From: an uncultured Candidatus Saccharibacteria bacterium
GTDB lineage: Bacteria > Patescibacteriota > Minisyncoccia > Phycocordibacterales > PALSA-1337
Direction: 5' to 3'
DNA: 64,000 nt
NCBI GenBank assembly: GCA_964646515.1
Contig: CAZYES010000001.1
Coordinates: 7,582 to 71,581 of the forward strand
Shown: positions 6,199 through 62,233 of the stretch, piece after piece
How positions within the stretch are numbered: the first letter of the stretch is position 1
Layout of the letters: every line of letters begins with the position of its first letter
Translations under genes and position numbers: made by a program
The notes under the pieces: generated by a model
Told to the model about the DNA's origin: nothing
The model's database searches: none
What the model saw: the letters and a program-made list of their open reading frames with translations, nothing else

Positions 6199-6984
6199 AT
6201 GACTAATAAAAAATTGATTGTTGGCAATTGGAAAATGAACCCGGCAACACTGGATGAGGCCAAGAGAATCGCCAGAAAGACTAAGAGGGTTGCTACACAA
6301 CTCAAGTATACAGAAGCAATAATCTGTCCGCCGTTTGCTTTCATTTCTGCTTGTGCCTCGAGAAAAAAAATATCGGGTTTTGGTCTTGGCGCACAGAATG
6401 TCTCATATGAAGAAGACGGTGCTCATACTGGAGAAGTTGGCGCGGTAATGTTGAAAAATATTGGTGTTCAGTACGTGATTGTTGGGCATTCCGAAGAAAG
6501 AGCGCGGGGAGACTCCGATTCAATTGTCGCGAAAAAAATCAAGACACTTCTCGATTTTGGTCTTACGCCGATAGTTTGTGTTGGCGAGACTGTGCGCAAC
6601 GAAGATGGTTCGCATTTTGAATTTATAAAAGTACAAATAAAAAATAGTTTTGTGGATGTGCCAAAAAAATACGCTGATAAGATTATTCTAGCTTATGAAC
6701 CAGTTTGGGCGATTGGCGCCAAGGAGCCGATGTCACCGGAGAATATATATGAGATGTCGCTATTTGTGAAAAAGACTTTTGCTGATGTTTTTGGACAAAA
6801 GCCAGCGATGAAGATGACTATTTTATATGGGGGCTCAGTAAATTGCAGAAATGCGGTAGATATTATTTCTATCGGCAAGATTGATGGATTGTTGGTTGGA
6901 CGTGAAAGTGTGAATATTGTTGGTTTTGTTGAACTCTTGAAGGCGGTTGATGGTATTTATTCCGGTAGGCCATCTGATTGCTGA
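6199..6984 (+). CDS. tpiA: triosephosphate isomerase
   Basis: LIVGNWKMN and AYEPVWAIG signature motifs. Confidence 0.9.
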   Translation: MTNKKLIVGNWKMNPATLDEAKRIARKTKRVATQLKYTEAIICPPFAFISACASRKKISGFGLGAQNVSYEEDGAHTGEVGAVMLKNIGVQYVIVGHSEERARGDSDSIVAKKIKTLLDFGLTPIVCVGETVRNEDGSHFEFIKVQIKNSFVDVPKKYADKIILAYEPVWAIGAKEPMSPENIYEMSLFVKKTFADVFGQKPAMKMTILYGGSVNCRNAVDIISIGKIDGLLVGRESVNIVGFVELLKAVDGIYSGRPSDC

Positions 6985-13844: not shown

Positions 13845-14087
13845 CTAGATCAATCCAGCTTTTTTCAAGGTTTTGAGTGCGCCGTTTTTTTGGATTGTGC
13901 GCAGAGCTCTCGTAGACACATTCAAGACTATAGTTTTTTTCAGTTCGGGAACATAGATGCGCTTTTTTTGCAGGTTTGGGTACTTTCTAATTGTGCCACA
14001 AGGATTGAATTGTGTGGCACGAGTACGGTTCGAGTAGCGACCGCCTACGACCGATTTCTTCTGAGTTATAGCGCATATTTTTGCCAT
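13845..14087 (-). CDS. rpmB: 50S ribosomal protein L28
   Basis: MAKICAITQKKSVVGGRYSNRTRATQFNPCG matches the bL28 family. Confidence 0.85.
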   Translation of the reverse strand: MAKICAITQKKSVVGGRYSNRTRATQFNPCGTIRKYPNLQKKRIYVPELKKTIVLNVSTRALRTIQKNGALKTLKKAGLI

Positions 14088-14174
14088 GGTAGTATTGAGA
14101 AACTATGCTATCATAAATCGTCCCCTTAAATCAAGTGACAGGTTTCGAGGAGGGATGATCATAAGTGCCAAAAC

Positions 14175-14780
14175 ATGTTGCAGGTTTTATCTATAGTTAT
14201 TCTTATATTGTCAGTTATCATCCACGAAGTTTCCCACGGCTATATGGCTGATGTCTTGGGCGATCCTACGGCCAGACTGCAGGGTAGATTGACTCTGAAT
14301 CCAATAAAGCATATGGATCCGGTGGGTTCTGTGCTTATTCCACTGCTTACTACTTTTTTGGCCGGTTTTACTTTTGGCTGGGCGAAACCAGTTGTTTACA
14401 ATCCATATAATTTGAGAAATAAGAGGCAGGGAGAGTTTCTCATAGCTATCGCTGGTCCGTTTTCGAACCTATTACTCGCTTTAATTTTTGGGATGATTAT
14501 GCGGTTTACTATTGGTCCAGCGGGTATTATTACACCGTTTATAGAGATTGTCTCGTATATCGTTATTATCAATATAATTTTAGCGATCTTCAATTTGATT
14601 CCACTGCCGCCACTTGACGGCTCGAAACTTTTTTTGGCTTTTTTGCCAAATCAGTATGGCCAAATCCGTGTGGCTCTAGAAAGATACGGGTCAATTTTTG
14701 TTATCATCGCAGTACTTTTTCTCTGGCAATTGGTTGTGCCTATAGTGCCTTTCATCTTTAATTTATTCACTGGCTTATAA
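14175..14780 (+). CDS. M50-family (site-2 protease-like) zinc metalloprotease
   Basis: HEVSHGYMA HExxH motif in a transmembrane segment, in a polytopic membrane protein. Confidence 0.75.
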   Translation: MLQVLSIVILILSVIIHEVSHGYMADVLGDPTARLQGRLTLNPIKHMDPVGSVLIPLLTTFLAGFTFGWAKPVVYNPYNLRNKRQGEFLIAIAGPFSNLLLALIFGMIMRFTIGPAGIITPFIEIVSYIVIINIILAIFNLIPLPPLDGSKLFLAFLPNQYGQIRVALERYGSIFVIIAVLFLWQLVVPIVPFIFNLFTGL

Positions 14781-14837
14781 ATATGTAGCGGTAGTTTTTG
14801 TTGTTTTGTGCCATATGCGGTGGACCAGTACACAGAG

Positions 14838-15300
14838 TTGACAATTTTTTGCGTATATGTAAGGATTGACTACAGATTAGTCTTGTCTGGGTGTTGTCGT
14901 GGTGTCGATGATGTTTCCGCGACGTTGGCATTATTGGCAACATCCAGACCAAATTTAGGGCTTGCCTAGAACCCCATTCGCAGTTTTCCTCTGCTCGTGT
15001 GTTTGCTTCGATTGGTAGTTTGGCCAAGTCCATGGTGCCCCGACCGTCTTTCGTTGGCGTTTCAGCGGTCGGTGGCACCATTTACTCTTCCTGTTCTTTT
15101 ATTTTTATCACAGCGGTTGCTTTTGTCCTTTTGAGCCGTCTGTGATCAGGGTTGCCAGTGTTCCCCCCCCCCCCTCCCACAAACACTGGCACCCTGTCTC
15201 TTAGTCACCGTAAATGGGTTTATCGGACCTTTCTCCTTGTGTTCAATGCCCATTTGCCGTGGCACGCGCCGCAATCTTTCGTAGGTTGCGGCGTTTTTCT
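14838..15300 (+). ncRNA. candidate structured ncRNA of unknown class (candidate classes: RNase P RNA, tmRNA or other)
   Basis: A ~640-bp ORF-poor region, GC-enriched relative to its flanks. It has a TTGACA -35-like hexamer at 14838. Long hairpins include ATGGTGCCCCGACCG...CGGTCGGTGGCACCAT and GCCAGTGTT-C12TCCC loop-AACACTGGC. It ends in an intrinsic terminator at 15267-15300. Confidence 0.35.
15267..15300 (+). terminator. rho-independent terminator
   Basis: CGCCGCAA-tctttcgtagg-TTGCGGCG followed by TTTTTCTT. Confidence 0.7.
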
Positions 15301-15444
15301 TGCATAAAAAATCATTGCATGCTAAGTTGTTGTAATTACCCTTATAAGCAGGGTTTATTAAATAAATTTAGGCAATAATGAGTAATCGTCACAAGCAGTC
15401 CTTTTGGAGACGACTAAAGCTTGTGTGGTGAAGAATTTCAGTTT

Positions 15445-15864
15445 ATGCCAACGATCAATCAACTTACGAGATCTTATCGAAAGCGTTTCAAACAGAAATC
15501 CAAGTCTGTAGCCTTGACTCGTACCTTCAATACTATAAAAAATCGTCCAACCTTTTTTCCGGCACCGTTTAAGAGAGGTGTATGTACAAAAGTTACTACA
15601 AAAACTCCAAAGAAGCCCAACTCTGCCATTAGGAAGATTGCTCGCGTGAGGCTCACTAACGGGATGGAAGTTACGGCCTATATTCCTGGCGAAGGACACA
15701 ATTTGCAAGAGCATGCTGTGGTATTGCTTCGTGGCGGCCGTGTTAAGGATGTAGGTTTACGGTATTCCATTGTGCGTGGTGTTTTGGATTGTGCCGGAGT
15801 GGAGAAGCGTCGCAAAGGTCGTAGTCAGTATGGTAACAAGAAGCCAAAGACGGCCACAGCTTAA
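15445..15864 (+). CDS. rpsL: 30S ribosomal protein S12
   Basis: MPTINQL...KKPNSA(L/I)RK...[15 protein letters not shown] signature. The listed ORF begins 24 nt upstream, but the Met at 15445 is the canonical start. Confidence 0.95.
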
Positions 15865-15948
15865 TTGATTTTAAATATACTAGGAAAAACTTTAGGCAAC
15901 ATAAACTATTTTGGCAAAATTCAAAATAAATTATCATAAGCAAATACC

Positions 15949-16419
15949 ATGCGAAGAAAATTAAACATAAAGAGGGAATTGAGACCGGATGTAACATATA
16001 ATTCTCTTAAATTATCTAAGTTCACGAATTATATTATGCAATCTGGCAAAAAAAATATCGCCAGAAAGATTGTTGTTGATTGCATGAATGAAATCAAAGA
16101 GAAAGCCAAGGTCGAAAACCCTTTGGAAATATTTGAGTCGGCCCTGAAAAACACGACTCCATCTATGGAGGTAAGATCACGCCGAGTCGGCGGGGCCAAC
16201 TATCAGGTTCCACGAGAAGTTCGTCCAGAGCGCAAGCAAGCTTTGTCTATGAAGTGGATTATTGAGGCAGCGCGTAATAAGAAAGGCAAGCCTATTCATA
16301 TTAAGTTGGCAGAGGAGATCATCTCCGCCTCAAAGAACGAAGGTGAAGCAATCAAAAAACGTGAAAATGTACACAAAATGGCCGAGGCCAATAAAGCGTT
16401 TGCGCACTTTGCTTGGTAA
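15949..16419 (+). CDS. rpsG: 30S ribosomal protein S7
   Basis: uS7 family similarity ([11 protein letters not shown]..., [11 protein letters not shown]). Confidence 0.9.
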
Positions 16420-16478
16420 TAAGTCGTCTTTTATTATTAGGGAGTAATTGAGTGTTTGTATATTAACATTAAATATTT

Positions 16479-18623
16479 ATGAAACGTGACTACCCGTTAG
16501 AACAAGTAAGAAACTTTGGAATTATTGCTCATATCGACGCTGGTAAGACGACTACATCGGAACGTATCTTGTACTATACGGGTATGACCCATAAAATTGG
16601 GGAAGTTCACGAAGGTGAGACGGTCACTGATTGGATGGAGCAAGAAAGGGAGCGCGGTATTACGATCACAGCGGCTGCCATTACTTGTTTTTGGAATCCA
16701 ACATACATGCCACCGACAGACGTTTCCAAAAAAGTGCGTTTCAATATTATTGATACCCCAGGACACATCGACTTTACTGTTGAAGTGAAGCGTTCTCTTC
16801 GAGTTCTCGATGGGGCAGTTGTGGTATTCGATGGTGTGGCGGGTGTTGAACCACAGTCCGAGACCAATTGGAGGTATGCCGATGACGAAAAAGTCCCACG
16901 GCTTTGTTTTATCAACAAAATGGACCGTATAGGCGCTTCTTTTGATAAGTCGTTCAAATCGATTCTAGAAAGACTCAACAAAAAAGCAGTTAGATTTCAG
17001 ATTCCTATTGGCTTGGAGGGGGGTCATGTTGGCGTTGTCGATCTGATGCGTATGAAAGCTTATTATTTTGAGGGTGAATTGGGTAACAAAATTATTGAAA
17101 AAGACATTCCCGCGGAATTATTAGAAGATGCAAAGAAATATCACGCAGAAATGGTTGAGAAGATTGTCGAACATGACGACCTAGCTATGCAGAAGTATTT
17201 AGAGGGGCAAGAAATCACCATTGGTGAACTCAAGGCAATTACCAGAAAAGCGGTTATCAATAATGACATGTTTCCTGTCTTTACCGGCTCTGCTTTGAAA
17301 AATGTTGGTGTGCAATTGGTTTTGGATGCGGTCGTTGATTATCTGCCATCTCCTCTGGATATTCCTCCAGTAAAGGGAATAAATCCGGAAACCGGCGAAG
17401 AAGTTGTTCGTCACGCTTCCGATGATGAGCCTTTTTGCGCTTTGGCTTTCAAGTTGCAGAATGATCCATTTGTCGGGGCTTTGACTTTCTTTAGGGTCTA
17501 TTCAGGAACTATAGAAGCTGGTACCTACATTTACAATGTCTCTACAGGCAAGAGAGAACGTCTAGGGCGCATGGTGCGCTTGCAGGCAGATCAGAGGGAA
17601 GAAGTCAAAAAAGTTTTTGCCGGAGAGATTGCTGCCGCCGTTGGACTCAAAGACGCGTTAACTTCAAACACTTTTTGTGATGAAAAAAACCCGATTGTAC
17701 TCGAGATTATCAAGTTTATGGAGCCTGTTATTTCACTTAGGATTGAGCCAAAGACCAAGGCCGATCAAGAAAAAATGGGTTTGGCGCTACGCAAGTTGAG
17801 CAACGAAGATCCGACATTCAAGATTTCTTCCAACCAAGAGACGGGCGAGACTATTGTTTCCGGAATGGGCGAGCTTCATCTGGAGATTATGGTTGATCGC
17901 ATGAAGCGTGAATTTAGTGTAGAGGCCAATGTCGGCGAACCGCAGGTAGCATATCGAGAAACTATCCTTGGTAGTGCCGAAGCCGAGCATAAATATATCA
18001 AGCAGACTGGCGGTAAGGGTCAGTATGGCCATGTAAGGTTGAACTTGAAACCTATGGAACCGTGGCCAGAGGGCGAAAAAATACCAAAGACCGTTCATCG
18101 TTATGATGATTTTGAATTTATGAACTCTATAAAAGGTGGCGTTATCCCCAATGAATTTATTCCTGCGGTAGAAAAGGGTGTTCATGAAGCCATGGGCCGT
18201 GGCATTGTTGCTGGTTACAAAATGGTCAACATTTCTTGTGAATTGACATTTGGTTCTTATCACGATGTTGACTCTTCGGAGATAGCTTACAAGATTGCTG
18301 CTTCACAAGCTTTTCAAGATGCCGCCAAGCGCGCCAAGCCAGTTATTTTGGAGCCCATAATGAAATTAGAGGTTGTCGCCCCGGAAAAATATATGGGTGA
18401 TATCAATGGCTCCATTGCTTCCAAGCGTGGTCAGATAGAGGGTAGCCAACCAAAAGGTCAAGCCATTTCTATTATTGCCAAAGTACCTTTGGCGGAAATG
18501 TTCGGTTATACCACTCAACTTCGTTCTATGACCTCCGGACAAGGAAGTGCCATGATGGAATTTGATCACTATGAAGTCGTACCAGCTAATGTGGCGGAGG
18601 AGATTGTGGAGAAAAGAAAGTAG
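16479..18623 (+). CDS. fusA: elongation factor G
   Basis: G-domain AHIDAGKTT, DTPGHIDF, NKMDR, and EF-G domains II-V. Confidence 0.95.
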   Translation: MKRDYPLEQVRNFGIIAHIDAGKTTTSERILYYTGMTHKIGEVHEGETVTDWMEQERERGITITAAAITCFWNPTYMPPTDVSKKVRFNIIDTPGHIDFTVEVKRSLRVLDGAVVVFDGVAGVEPQSETNWRYADDEKVPRLCFINKMDRIGASFDKSFKSILERLNKKAVRFQIPIGLEGGHVGVVDLMRMKAYYFEGELGNKIIEKDIPAELLEDAKKYHAEMVEKIVEHDDLAMQKYLEGQEITIGELKAITRKAVINNDMFPVFTGSALKNVGVQLVLDAVVDYLPSPLDIPPVKGINPETGEEVVRHASDDEPFCALAFKLQNDPFVGALTFFRVYSGTIEAGTYIYNVSTGKRERLGRMVRLQADQREEVKKVFAGEIAAAVGLKDALTSNTFCDEKNPIVLEIIKFMEPVISLRIEPKTKADQEKMGLALRKLSNEDPTFKISSNQETGETIVSGMGELHLEIMVDRMKREFSVEANVGEPQVAYRETILGSAEAEHKYIKQTGGKGQYGHVRLNLKPMEPWPEGEKIPKTVHRYDDFEFMNSIKGGVIPNEFIPAVEKGVHEAMGRGIVAGYKMVNISCELTFGSYHDVDSSEIAYKIAASQAFQDAAKRAKPVILEPIMKLEVVAPEKYMGDINGSIASKRGQIEGSQPKGQAISIIAKVPLAEMFGYTTQLRSMTSGQGSAMMEFDHYEVVPANVAEEIVEKRK

Positions 18624-20426: not shown

Positions 20427-20458
20427 TTATTAATTATTAGTCACGGTAATAACGAACA

Positions 20459-20492
20459 AAATGCCTCTTTCAGGGGCATTTTGTCTATTTGA
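20459..20492 (+). terminator. rho-independent terminator
   Basis: AATGCCTCT-ttc-AGGGGCATT followed by a T-rich tract. Confidence 0.6.
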
Positions 20493-20718
20493 GGGAAAAT
20501 TTGCGACTTTTTTGACTCTGTGCTAGTCTAGTTGGTACGCGCTATCCTGCGTTTTCATATTGTTCTTCATCAGTCAATTAACTTGAAATGATGGAGGAAT
20601 GTGGAGGTAACTATTAATAATTTATCCCCTTTTTGGGCATGTATCGTTAGTGTTCATACGCACAAGCATTAACGATAATGTCCAAGGACTGGGGCAATAA
20701 AATAATAACAAAAATATT

Positions 20719-61657: not shown

Positions 61658-62233
61658 TGCCTCGCTCGATGTTTGGCCACCCATAATTTGGAGTAAGGAT
61701 ATGGGAAAAATGTAGGGAATTGACTTTTGGGTCTTTTTACACTAATATGGCTCTGTTAGTGGCTGTTGTCGGAAAATCTTAATTTTATGGATTTTTTAAC
61801 GGATTACCCCTTAATTTTACGTTTAATAATTTTGTGAATTTAACAATATGTGGTTATCCACAAGTTCTTTTGCTTTACATCCCGTAGATGAGATATAATG
61901 TTTTGTAACGAGTGTGCAATCAGGTCGTCTAGTATTGCATACTTGTCCCAGAGCAGTAGTGCTTAGGGAAAATTTCTCTGCTTTGCTCCTAGAGTTTGAG
62001 TAGAGAAAAAGTCCGCTTTAGTTTTTAATAAAAAGTTAGAGCGTGACAAGTCGAACTTTGACAACTTAATAATATGTCACAAGTTCGTTTAGATTAGCCA
62101 CAAACTCTTTTTACTTTGCGTGTCGATAGCGCATTTTGTAAAAAGAAGTGGATTATTAGTTAGTTTATAAATCGCATTAACTTCTCCCTCATTATTAATA
62201 ATCGGAGAAGGTGCGTTAATTATTAAATCAAAA

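Follow-up and report, generated by a model that had tools for sequence, protein, structure and literature searches.

A strongly structured, strand-specific non-coding segment upstream of rpsL as a candidate lineage-specific RNA gene in an uncultured patescibacterium

Introduction

What occupies the long spacer between a site-2 protease (M50) gene and rpsL in an uncultured Candidatus Saccharibacteria bacterium? In the 64-kb stretch of DNA analyzed here (the window), positions 14838–15300 had been proposed to hold an unclassified structured RNA, either a housekeeping RNA or a lineage-specific non-coding RNA (ncRNA). All features described in this original prediction were located within 1–2 nt of the positions given for them. 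Our analysis supports a real, strand-specific, strongly structured non-coding segment ending in an intrinsic terminator. As to what the segment is, we regard as about evenly balanced the proposal that it is a self-contained, lineage-specific plus-strand gene for a highly structured RNA of ~430 nt, situated in the variable M50–rpsL spacer.

Boundaries and predicted fold of the segment

The segment and its flanks are listed in Table 1. The TTGACA hexamer noted at the start of the interval is present at 14838–14843, and the two long imperfect helices named in the original prediction were recovered in both the sequence and the fold. The reported GC enrichment was also reproduced (0.49–0.56 over 14900–15300 compared with ~0.41 for the window). 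At the 3′ end, the clean intrinsic terminator (stem 15266–15294, T tail to 15300) lies, as described, 145 nt before the rpsL ATG (15445), and provides the Rho-independent terminator expected of a small RNA (sRNA) gene. No terminator separates the M50 gene from the element, as 14781–14837 contains no stem plus T-run. Elsewhere in the window, 61.7–62.4 kb was considered as oriC; DnaA boxes are not enriched there.

Table 1. Features of the M50–rpsL interval and its flanks in the window.
Feature	Positions	Strand	Basis or remark
Site-2 protease (Peptidase_M50) gene, upstream flank	14175–14780	+	Pfam PF02163, ORF list
Candidate sigma70-type promoter	14838–14866	+	−35 TTGACA (14838–43), 17-nt spacer, TG (14858–59), −10 AAGGAT (14861–66)
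Hairpin 1, ~30 bp, G-U-rich, one bulge	14885–14949	+	−36.3 kcal/mol, z −7.4; in MFE and centroid
Hairpin 2, weak, irregular	14958–15030	+	z −0.5, no better than shuffles
Hairpin 3, 16-bp GC-rich helix	15031–15082	+	−30.4 kcal/mol, z −6.3
Hairpin 4, 15-nt U/C-rich loop	15107–15146	+	−14.5 kcal/mol, z −4.2
Hairpin 5, 15-bp stem, 19-nt loop C12-UCCCACA	15147–15196	+	−22.6 kcal/mol, z −5.5; inverted repeat I2
C12 homopolymer in hairpin 5 loop	15163–15174	+	Length varies among assemblies
Hairpin 6, apical region with CUUUCUCCUU	15204–15263	+	−22.0 kcal/mol, z −4.5
Intrinsic terminator, 12-bp stem, 5-nt loop, T tail	15266–15300	+	Terminator scan; −20.2 kcal/mol, z −5.8
rpsL-operon promoter, bounding the element, not part of it	15300–15328	+	−35 TTGCAT (15300–05), 17-nt spacer, TGC-TAAGTT −10 (15323–28)
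rpsL leader, 16S helix-43 mimic, separate from the element	15360–15456	+	Alignment A1; CM R1; fold
rpsL (S12), downstream flank, then rpsG and fusA	15445–15864	+	Pfam PF00164; L081 gene table

In a composition-corrected scan, no other region of the window was as strong a fold outlier. The plus strand of 14860–15300 folded at −180.3 kcal/mol, whereas its dinucleotide shuffles gave −123 ± 5.7 kcal/mol (z −9.96). The minus strand, at −146.2 kcal/mol (z −5.3), was less stable by 34 kcal/mol. The centroid of the plus-strand fold was almost equal to the minimum free energy (MFE) structure, and both described a string of seven independent hairpins. Individually, six of the seven scored between z −4.2 and −7.4, the exception being that at 14958–15030 (z −0.5), whose apical region carries UUUUCCUCU (14984–14992). 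Hairpin 3, formed by ATGGTGCCCCGACCG (15032–15046) and CGGTCGGTGGCACCAT (15066–15081), is followed directly by a U-rich linker (15083–15106) and may therefore represent an internal terminator. The core of hairpin 5, GCCAGTGTT (15154–15162) paired with AACACTGGC (15182–15190) within an extended stem spanning 15147–15196, encloses C12 followed by TCCCACA. The pyrimidine-rich character of the loops follows in part from composition, since the strand is poor in purines and those it has are consumed in the stems.

Agreement among assemblies and the C12 tract

The segment was identical in four independent assemblies of the organism except for the length of its C-run, and is therefore not an assembly chimera. 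These four assemblies are clonal, and over up to 6.6 kb the C-run (10, 11 or 12 nt) was the sole difference among them; one contig ends 2 nt into the tract. Being the only differing site among otherwise identical assemblies, C12 appears prone to slippage or error. The original prediction had called the tract unusual and placed it in a hairpin loop, and indeed it is the only run of at least seven G or C in the 64 kb and lies inside the loop of hairpin 5. Its further suggestion of a slippage-prone site or an artefact holds for the length instability, seen in both the variable counts and the contig break, which may reflect either real slippage or sequencing or assembly error.

Hypermutable poly-G/C tracts are known at phase-variable loci of Campylobacter, Neisseria and Haemophilus. 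C12 resembles these in being a 12-nt run unique in the window and the sole site of difference among assemblies, and differs in lying in an RNA hairpin loop rather than in a supported ORF or a promoter spacing. An expression switch acting through an ORF or promoter spacing was not found at C12, the overlapping ORFs being without support.

Coding potential

The original view that the interval contains no convincing ORF was borne out by Pfam, by protein database searches and by simulation of ORF lengths. No ORF of the segment matched Pfam, the only database match of the minus-strand ORFs was the organism's own gene call, and the longest stop-free stretch (104 codons) equaled the mean of dinucleotide shuffles. 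Neither a Shine-Dalgarno (SD) sequence nor an A-rich start context was found for the segment's ORFs, and no peptide was shared among the corresponding spacers of related genomes. With no Pfam match, homologue, excess ORF length or start-site context, the segment is non-coding in the sense expected of an sRNA gene.

These results bear on the idea of a small-protein or type I toxin–antitoxin locus in which RNA structure controls translation, which we consider highly improbable. The candidate proteins, no more probable than the idea itself, would be a hydrophobic plus-strand ORF of 37 or 48 aa (15032 or 14999 to 15145) or a minus-strand ORF with its frame set by the length of the G/C run (56 aa with 11 C, L081). 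Type I toxin mRNAs are highly structured, and the plus-strand ORF encodes the hydrophobic stretch CSFIFITAVAFVLL; however, a T-rich strand gives hydrophobic "peptides" by default, and the ATG at 15032 is buried in the 16-bp GC-rich stem of hairpin 3, without the A/U-rich context in which genuine genes of this organism start. On the minus strand, C11 brings 56 and 104 codons into the same reading frame, with just one stop, the 56-aa ORF was called by JGI, and homopolymer length would switch the frame; against this stand the missing Pfam match, the stop-free length no greater than that of shuffles, the database match confined to the organism's own gene call and the lack of any peptide common to the relatives' spacers. 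The original prediction had also allowed that the 37-aa ORF might be the conserved element, an option that fails because nothing upstream of the terminator is conserved.

Comparison with known RNA families

The original prediction had considered, beside a lineage-specific ncRNA, a housekeeping RNA (RNase P RNA or tmRNA); 6S and SRP RNA were examined together with these. Rfam yielded no match in the window at the gathering score and nothing relevant over 14600–15600 at E ≤ 10, and ARAGORN found no gene in the window and none in the M50–rpsL gap of 60 related loci. The individual families were rejected as follows. For RNase P RNA, Rfam gave no match and the P4/CR-I (GAGGAAAGUCC) and CR-V cores are absent from the sequence. 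tmRNA combines a tRNA-like domain, built from its 5′ and 3′ ends, with a tag-peptide reading frame; ARAGORN and Rfam were empty and no tRNA-like sequence is present. 6S RNA is rod-like, with paired 5′ and 3′ ends around a large central bubble, unlike the seven independent hairpins here, and Rfam was again empty. SRP RNA (4.5S) carries conserved symmetric and asymmetric loops in its domain IV helix; Rfam gave no match and no domain IV sequence occurs.

RNAs of the Candidate Phyla Radiation (CPR) can be divergent, and a housekeeping RNA missed by the models would fit the element in size (~430 nt), in its candidate promoter and its terminator, and in having translation genes nearby in the form of the adjacent ribosomal operon. 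Such an RNA would, however, be conserved, whereas the syntenic spacers of relatives are unrelated or absent; the element lacks the defining cores (P4/CR-I, tRNA-like or domain IV sequence), matches no Rfam model even at E ≤ 10 and nothing in ARAGORN, and folds as a string of hairpins instead of a rod or a P1–P18 core. This idea can be dropped as effectively refuted.

Searches for homologues of the element by blastn and nhmmer in syntenic loci from genomes (80) and metagenomes (31), ~620 kb in all, were negative. A covariance model (CM R2) of hairpins 5–6, the 3′ domain, had no match in the ~620 kb of syntenic loci, the exact hairpin pattern was not found in metagenome and viral contigs, and blastn under "distant" settings revealed no similarity to phages and plasmids. 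Comparison with 16S rRNA gave only chance 7–9-mers, apart from the rpsL leader described below. The closest relatives have M50 proteins that are only 75% identical, and none falls between 75% and 100%. Homologues with compensatory base changes, as expected of a conserved ncRNA family, were not found in these collections. The original prediction had named as evidence against a conserved RNA the joint absence of covariance-model matches and of helix conservation in related genomes; this is the outcome obtained (blastn, nhmmer and the 3′-domain model), and the notion of a conserved RNA is abandoned.

The M50–rpsL spacer in related genomes

Across 80 syntenic loci, the M50–rpsL gap ranged from 18 to 1690 nt, and in several of them it was occupied by unrelated accessory ORFs. 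A cassette laid out like that in the window, with a sigma70-like promoter, hairpins biased to the plus strand, a terminator and then the conserved rpsL promoter, is present in at least nine Paceibacteria relatives (L002, L003, L004, L010, L011, L013, L021, L024 and L086). In other relatives, the gap holds accessory genes or nothing. The plus strand was the more stable in nine of the 10 spacers tested, the window included; the L021 cassette was not folded on the minus strand. No conservation upstream of the terminator was detected in syntenic relatives by blastn, nhmmer or covariance model, and the relatives' cassettes could not be aligned to one another, which suggests that they may have arisen by separate insertions and not form a single family. 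The fallback of the original prediction, a lineage-specific ncRNA, survives, with indirect support from analogous but non-homologous promoter–hairpins–terminator cassettes at the same locus. The UUCCUC-type motif of hairpin 2 recurs in these cassettes: GUUCCUC(C) was found in five of nine, a count reached by one of 200 shuffles. As it keeps no consistent position or structural context and does not occur in L086, it constitutes a weak, unexplained lead.

One reading of this variability is that the segment is non-functional insertion debris, a decayed mobile element or inverted duplications in an insertion-tolerant hotspot whose hairpins have no role. The wide range of gap lengths, the unrelated accessory ORFs, the orphan status of the sequence and the lack of homology between the cassettes of different genomes would all fit. 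Like REP/BIME or MITE palindromes, the element consists of stable imperfect palindromes located 3′ of a gene, and the spacer holding them differs from genome to genome. Unlike them, it is single copy in the 64 kb examined and has no terminal inverted repeats (TIR) or target-site duplications (TSD), and its helices are specific to the RNA strand. The plus-strand fold contains 22 G-U pairs (30 over the whole spacer) and no A-C 1×1 mismatch, whereas neutral palindrome decay predicts A-C mismatches as frequent as G-U pairs; strand-biased C-to-T mutation could account for part of the G-U excess. Together with the absence of phage or plasmid similarity and of a local duplication source, and with a functional-looking promoter and terminator framing the segment, these observations make the debris reading unlikely.

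A second reading takes the segment as a structured extension of the M50 mRNA, a long 3′ UTR that also acts as an insulator: its hairpins would block exonucleases and its terminator would hold M50 read-through back from the rpsL promoter, with neither an independent RNA product nor a function in trans. We judge it somewhat unlikely. It draws on the M50 gene, which lacks a terminator before 15082 or 15300, and on the candidate internal promoter, which has only nine of 12 consensus matches (equaled by 11% of shuffles, p ~0.11) and was absent from the consensus promoter scan. Moreover, the terminator tail abuts the rpsL −35 both here and in relatives, and poor conservation would suit a role that needs merely "some stable hairpins plus a terminator". 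However, 520 nt and seven hairpins far exceed the needs of termination or 3′ protection, and relatives with short spacers cope without the cassette and without any M50 terminator, indicating that the cassette comes and goes as a unit. A 3′ UTR would also have no need of the promoter-like sites found within ~60 nt of the M50 stop in the nine relatives, where matches range from nine to all 12 of the consensus positions; in six of these nine, ≤0.7% of shuffles equaled the score.

A candidate structured RNA gene

Weighed against these readings, a lineage-specific RNA gene remains our preferred explanation, and from the parts of the segment we infer promoter use, a stable RNA product, its processing and any function in trans. 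Transcription would start near 14872 from TTGACA-17-(TG)AAGGAT, the start site being placed from the sequence of the candidate promoter. As regards a promoter of its own, the segment offers nine of 12 matches with an upstream TG, equaled by 11% of shuffles, alongside the stronger sites of the nine relatives. Transcription may also enter from M50, given its missing terminator. The RNA would fold co-transcriptionally into the string of independent hairpins, of which the ~30-bp hairpin 1 is long enough for an RNase III substrate and a probable RNase III processing site, and would end at the 15266–15300 terminator. Because the T tail abuts the rpsL −35, the ribosomal operon would be insulated from upstream transcription. 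The product would most likely be a trans-acting riboregulator or a protein-titrating RNA exposing the pyrimidine-rich loops C12UCCCACA, UUUUCCUCU and CUUUCUCCUU.

Promoter-to-terminator sRNA genes include those embedded in 3′ UTRs with an internal promoter (MicL and DapZ type) and the C-rich-loop sRNAs of Firmicutes (RsaE and RoxS type), and species-restricted sequence is common among sRNAs. The element shares with them its non-coding nature, strand-specific structure, location at the 3′ end of a protein gene, candidate sigma70 promoter, Rho-independent terminator, unpaired C/U-rich loops and species-restricted sequence. It differs in its length (~430 nt, several-fold longer than a typical sRNA) and in having no recognizable Hfq/ProQ-type module. 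The classic mechanism of a C-rich loop pairing with an SD sequence is unlikely because the organism does not use SD sequences; an anti-SD role of the C/U-rich loops was set aside on the same ground. Base pairing between the sRNA and the rpsL leader, considered on account of a 12/15 complementarity of 14929–43 to 15366–80, was likewise rejected: across genomes, duplexes with the own leader (−71.6) equaled those with foreign leaders (−71.4), as computed by RNAduplex, which is ill-suited to inputs of this length.

Large structured ncRNAs such as OLE, GOLLD, HEARO, ROOL and raiA came to light in AT-rich genomes as long intergenic regions of high GC (PMC6429828, PMC8632094). The element is likewise a long GC-enriched intergenic region in a ~41% GC genome, with extreme predicted stability and no coding potential, but these are conserved families with covariation and Rfam models, whereas the element has no Rfam match or homologue in the collections searched. 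Our literature search found no paper on regulatory RNAs of the CPR. In genomes as small and densely packed as these, a non-coding stretch of 520 nt with gene-like boundaries and so exceptional a structure probably serves some role. Should it be expressed, the element would be among the first candidate sRNAs of Patescibacteria, and the analogous cassettes of relatives would suggest a hotspot in which RNAs of this kind arise or are exchanged.

A broader proposal, which we hold to be decidedly unlikely, is that the M50–rpsL junction of this Paceibacteria clade is the home of strongly promoted structured RNAs of 80–430 nt that stay constant in position, strand, promoter and terminator while their sequence turns over beyond alignment. 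Diversifying selection, exerted for example by hosts or phages of episymbionts, would drive this turnover, and the hypermutable poly-C loop would here generate variants of the RNA within the population.

The rpsL promoter and leader

The conserved part of the interval lies outside the coordinates originally proposed and comprises the rpsL promoter and leader (15300–15456). By blastn, only the promoter part of the M50–rpsL gap was conserved. The −35 of this promoter abuts the terminator tail, and its layout is kept in relatives (a T-run, TTGCCx or TTGCAT, ~17 nt, TGnTAAGGT or TGCTAAnnT, then CCACTG). As the conserved promoter and leader lie downstream of the element's terminator, the element is not an rpsL leader. 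It is therefore very improbable that the segment serves the rpsL operon in cis as a leader or attenuator, with transcription from 14838 reading into rpsL and 15266–15300 serving as the regulated attenuator. The shared strand, the position directly upstream of rpsL and the terminal terminator would suit such a device, but a conserved promoter intervenes between terminator and rpsL, the conserved leader begins only after that promoter, no anti-terminator alternative is evident, and relatives keep promoter and leader yet lack the segment.

The leader hairpin is flanked by GAGUAAUCG (15380–88) and GGUGAA (15427–32), and its outer stem, GGCA (15371–74) paired with UGCC (15446–49), overlaps the rpsL AUG (15445–47). 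A covariance model of the leader (CM R1) matched the window at 46 bits (E 8e-9) and located the leader in front of rpsL in 23 loci from genomes and 19 contigs from metagenomes; the leader is restricted to one Paceibacteria clade. In the alignment, 87% of cells were paired compared with 25–46% in slid controls, and compensatory changes occurred in all five pairs of the outer stem. In E. coli 16S rRNA, AGUAAUCG (1346–1353)–helix 43–CGGUGAA (1369–1375) matches the invariant GAGUAAUCG...GGUGAA; in the 30S structure this region is the site of S7. By this resemblance, the leader at 15360–15456 is probably an S7 operator, for which it is a candidate. It is not in Rfam 15.

Other ribosomal protein leaders that mimic rRNA have been described (PMC7247131), and the present one is not among the 20 leaders of that study. 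In the window, its outer stem covers a start codon. The E. coli str operon has an S7 translational operator (PMC3616713), and both are structured mRNA elements in an rpsL–rpsG–fusA operon that resemble the S7 region of 16S rRNA. Unlike the E. coli operator, the leader lies upstream of rpsL instead of between rpsL and rpsG, has a different fold and carries a literal copy of the helix-43 flanks. With this helix-43 mimic before rpsL, possible S7 autoregulation through rRNA mimicry becomes directly testable in an uncultured phylum.

Structure and sequence features of the element

A structured RNA had been proposed in the gap between the Peptidase_M50 gene and rpsL, and all features described in this original prediction were found within 1–2 nt of where it had placed them. 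The GC enrichment was reproduced (0.49–0.56 across 14900–15300 vs ~0.41 for the window), and the terminator at 15266–15300 was the best terminator-like site in the scanned interval 14000–16500. A composition-corrected sliding-window scan showed that the element was the top structural outlier of the 64 kb. The + strand of 14860–15300 folded at −180.3 kcal/mol (z −9.96), with nearly identical MFE and centroid structures, compared with −146.2 (z −5.3) for the minus strand. The overall fold was a series of independent hairpins, six of seven being significant when folded singly (z −4.2 to −7.4); the hairpin at 14958–15030 was not. The + strand fold contained 22–30 G-U pairs and zero A-C mismatches, the signature expected if RNA rather than DNA is kept paired; debris is a less likely explanation of the element.

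Coordinates of features around the M50-rpsL gap (window positions)
Feature	Position	Strand	Description
Peptidase_M50 gene	14175–14780		
M50-rpsL gap			664 nt
Element	14838–15300	+	structured, non-coding
Candidate element promoter			TTGACA, 17 nt, TG-n-AAGGAT; 9/12 matches, p ~0.11
Hairpin 1	14885–14949		
Hairpin 5	15147–15196		
C12 tract	15163–15174		in 19-nt hairpin loop
Hairpin 6	15204–15263		
rpsL promoter	15300–15328	+	pattern conserved across relatives
rpsL leader	15360–15456	+	alignment, covariance model
rpsL	ATG at 15445		

Four independent assemblies of the organism agreed throughout the segment apart from the C tract, the sole run of seven or more G or C residues in the window. Its length was 10, 11, or 12 across these assemblies, which otherwise showed no mismatch for up to 6.6 kb, and one contig stopped 2 nt inside the tract. 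These differences, together with the contig end, indicate a tract prone to slippage in vivo, to sequencing error, or to both; the suggestion of slippage or artefact stands as regards variable length. The frame of a minus-strand ORF across the tract depends on its length, and this ORF was unsupported by protein-database search and by a shuffle test of its length.

Exclusion of known RNA classes, coding sequences, and repeats

The housekeeping RNA suggested initially (RNase P RNA or tmRNA) is refuted as a conserved RNA by the criterion proposed with it, since no covariance model matched and the helices were not conserved in relatives. Rfam gave no match at gathering score over the entire 64 kb and nothing meaningful at E ≤ 10 over 14600–15600, and ARAGORN detected no tRNA or tmRNA in the window, though translation genes abound there. 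Rfam likewise gave no match on the loci of the twenty closest relatives, and no tRNA or tmRNA was found in the gap of sixty loci. The string of independent hairpins resembled neither a 6S-like rod nor an RNase P-like core, and a divergent housekeeping RNA is accordingly less likely.

The element is not coding, in agreement with the claim that it holds no convincing ORF. None of its ORFs matched Pfam, the sole protein-database match of the minus-strand ORFs was the organism's own gene call, and a 104-codon open stretch equaled the mean of dinucleotide shuffles. The ATG of the small ORF from 15032 lies inside a 16-bp GC-rich stem, without the A/U-rich context seen at real starts of this genome, which lacks Shine-Dalgarno sequences. 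No peptide common to the cassettes of relatives was found, and a small protein or type I toxin is a less likely reading. Nor does the element look like mobile DNA or belong to a repeat: the window held no further copy of it, and it had no terminal repeats, no similarity to phages or plasmids, and no local source for a duplication.

Genomic context and analogous cassettes in relatives

The source organism is an uncultured bacterium in the Paceibacteria/Parcubacteria group of the Patescibacteria; its nearest relatives in the genome collection are labeled Taylorbacteria, Paceibacterota, or Parcubacteria. Locally, ComEC is followed by a 338-aa protein, L28 (− strand), Peptidase_M50, the gap, rpsL, rpsG, and fusA. 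At 40 start sites (310–60857), the upstream sequence was A/U-rich without a Shine-Dalgarno sequence.

The order M50-then-rpsL was kept in 80 syntenic loci with gaps of 18 to 1690 nt, and all-against-all comparison showed that only the final 150–200 nt ahead of rpsL were conserved. No homologue of the element was found in ~620 kb of syntenic DNA by blastn, nhmmer, or a covariance model of hairpins 5–6. Among 5.8 billion clustered proteins, none had an identity between 75% and 100% with the window M50, indicating no close relatives. In short-spacer relatives, the M50 stop leads directly to the rpsL promoter without a terminator, and relatives with spacers >1 kb carry unrelated accessory ORFs. 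Such ORFs (110–370 aa) in the gaps of L005, L012, L018, L019, L021, L067, and L075 (related loci) mark the junction as an insertion hotspot. In a more distant Paceibacteria group (L031, L034, L037, and L073), the gap held a different conserved element of ~130 nt (78–89% identity), which may be another leader type.

Nine intermediate-spacer relatives (L002, L003, L004, L010, L011, L013, L021, L024, and L086) contained a cassette with a window-like layout. Each began with a sigma70-like promoter ≤~60 nt from the M50 stop (9–12 of 12 positions matched; ≤0.7% of shuffles equaled the match in six of nine), followed by 80–400 nt of hairpins and an intrinsic terminator with its tail adjoining the rpsL −35. 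The element promoter of the window was weaker than these. The + strand fold was more stable in 9 of 10 spacers tested, including that of the window; the L021 cassette was folded on the + strand only. The cassettes were mutually unalignable. A GUUCCUC(C) motif recurred in five of nine otherwise unrelated cassettes, a frequency reached by 1 of 200 shuffles; sites of this type occurred in L003, L004, L011, L013, L021, and L024 and at 14984–14992 of the window, lay in an apical loop in some cases, and were absent from the opposite strand of those cassettes.

The element is best explained as a gene for a structured RNA, ~430 nt long and read on the + strand, that is specific to this lineage and lies in a variable hotspot between genes. 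Transcription would start at its own promoter and also enter by read-through from M50, which lacks a terminator; the RNA would end at 15300, where the terminator would also shield the rpsL promoter. Exposed pyrimidine-rich loops might confer a trans-acting role, and hairpin 1 (30 bp) could be processed by RNase III. The leading alternative is that it acts solely in cis, as 3′ UTR of M50 and insulator. The original observation is confirmed and its interpretation partly supported, and the element is best filed as an orphan lineage-specific structured sRNA or 3′-UTR RNA.

A conserved leader of rpsL

The leader of rpsL is a better-supported discovery than the neighboring element. The conserved rpsL promoter comprises a T-run, TTGCCx or TTGCAT, ~17 nt, and an extended-type −10, TGnTAAGGT, TGCTAAnnT, or TGCTAAGTT. 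Its −35 directly adjoins the T tail with which the upstream terminator ends, and the leader follows. The element thus sits upstream of the rpsL promoter and was rejected as rpsL leader or attenuator, the latter being among the less likely readings.

Alignment of 19 leader sequences showed invariant GAGUAAUCG and GGUGAA around a variable hairpin, with a closing outer stem. The covariance model placed the leader ahead of rpsL in 23 genome loci, four of them outside the model-building set, and in 19 metagenome contigs at 41–88 bits, compared with ≤25 bits for chance sequence-pattern matches. In the model-fitted alignment, 87% of cells were paired (25–46% with slid partners), double-change cells numbered 49 (15 ± 4 in shuffles), and all five outer-stem pairs covaried. 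The motif was absent from Rfam 15 and from the leaders of PMC7247131.

The invariant strands correspond to the flanks of 16S rRNA helix 43 (E. coli 1346–1375: AGUAAUCG-hairpin-CGGUGAA), a junction that is part of the S7 site on the 30S subunit. The second gene of the operon is rpsG, and in E. coli the str operon is known to be repressed by S7 (PMC3616713). On this sequence likeness, the leader is probably an S7 autoregulatory operator. In the predicted fold of the window leader, the rpsL AUG lies inside the 3′ strand of the outer stem, which suggests translational repression of rpsL.

In L001, L002, L006, L011, and L024, the leader is separated from the rpsL start by 40–110 nt bearing three to six repeats of AAAGU or UAAGAG, a stretch absent from the window. 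In L102, a metagenome contig from a distantly related lineage with 63% identical S12, the exact leader pattern occurs between rpsL and rpsG (6553–6610), at the position of the S7 operator in E. coli; this candidate is a sequence-pattern match not scored by the covariance model.

Other structured intergenic regions

A second long non-coding, strongly structured region was found at 61658–62230 (+; z down to −4.9), with several hairpins and, at 61720, a site resembling a promoter (TTGACT-17-TAATAT). It includes a perfect TTATCCACA at 61854, despite which DnaA boxes were not enriched in the window. The structured region upstream of tuf (EF-Tu, 20719) at 20427–20718 (+) contains a terminator belonging to the preceding gene and, after it, two long hairpins on the + strand, and folded at −88.5 kcal/mol on the + strand vs −59.6 on the − strand.
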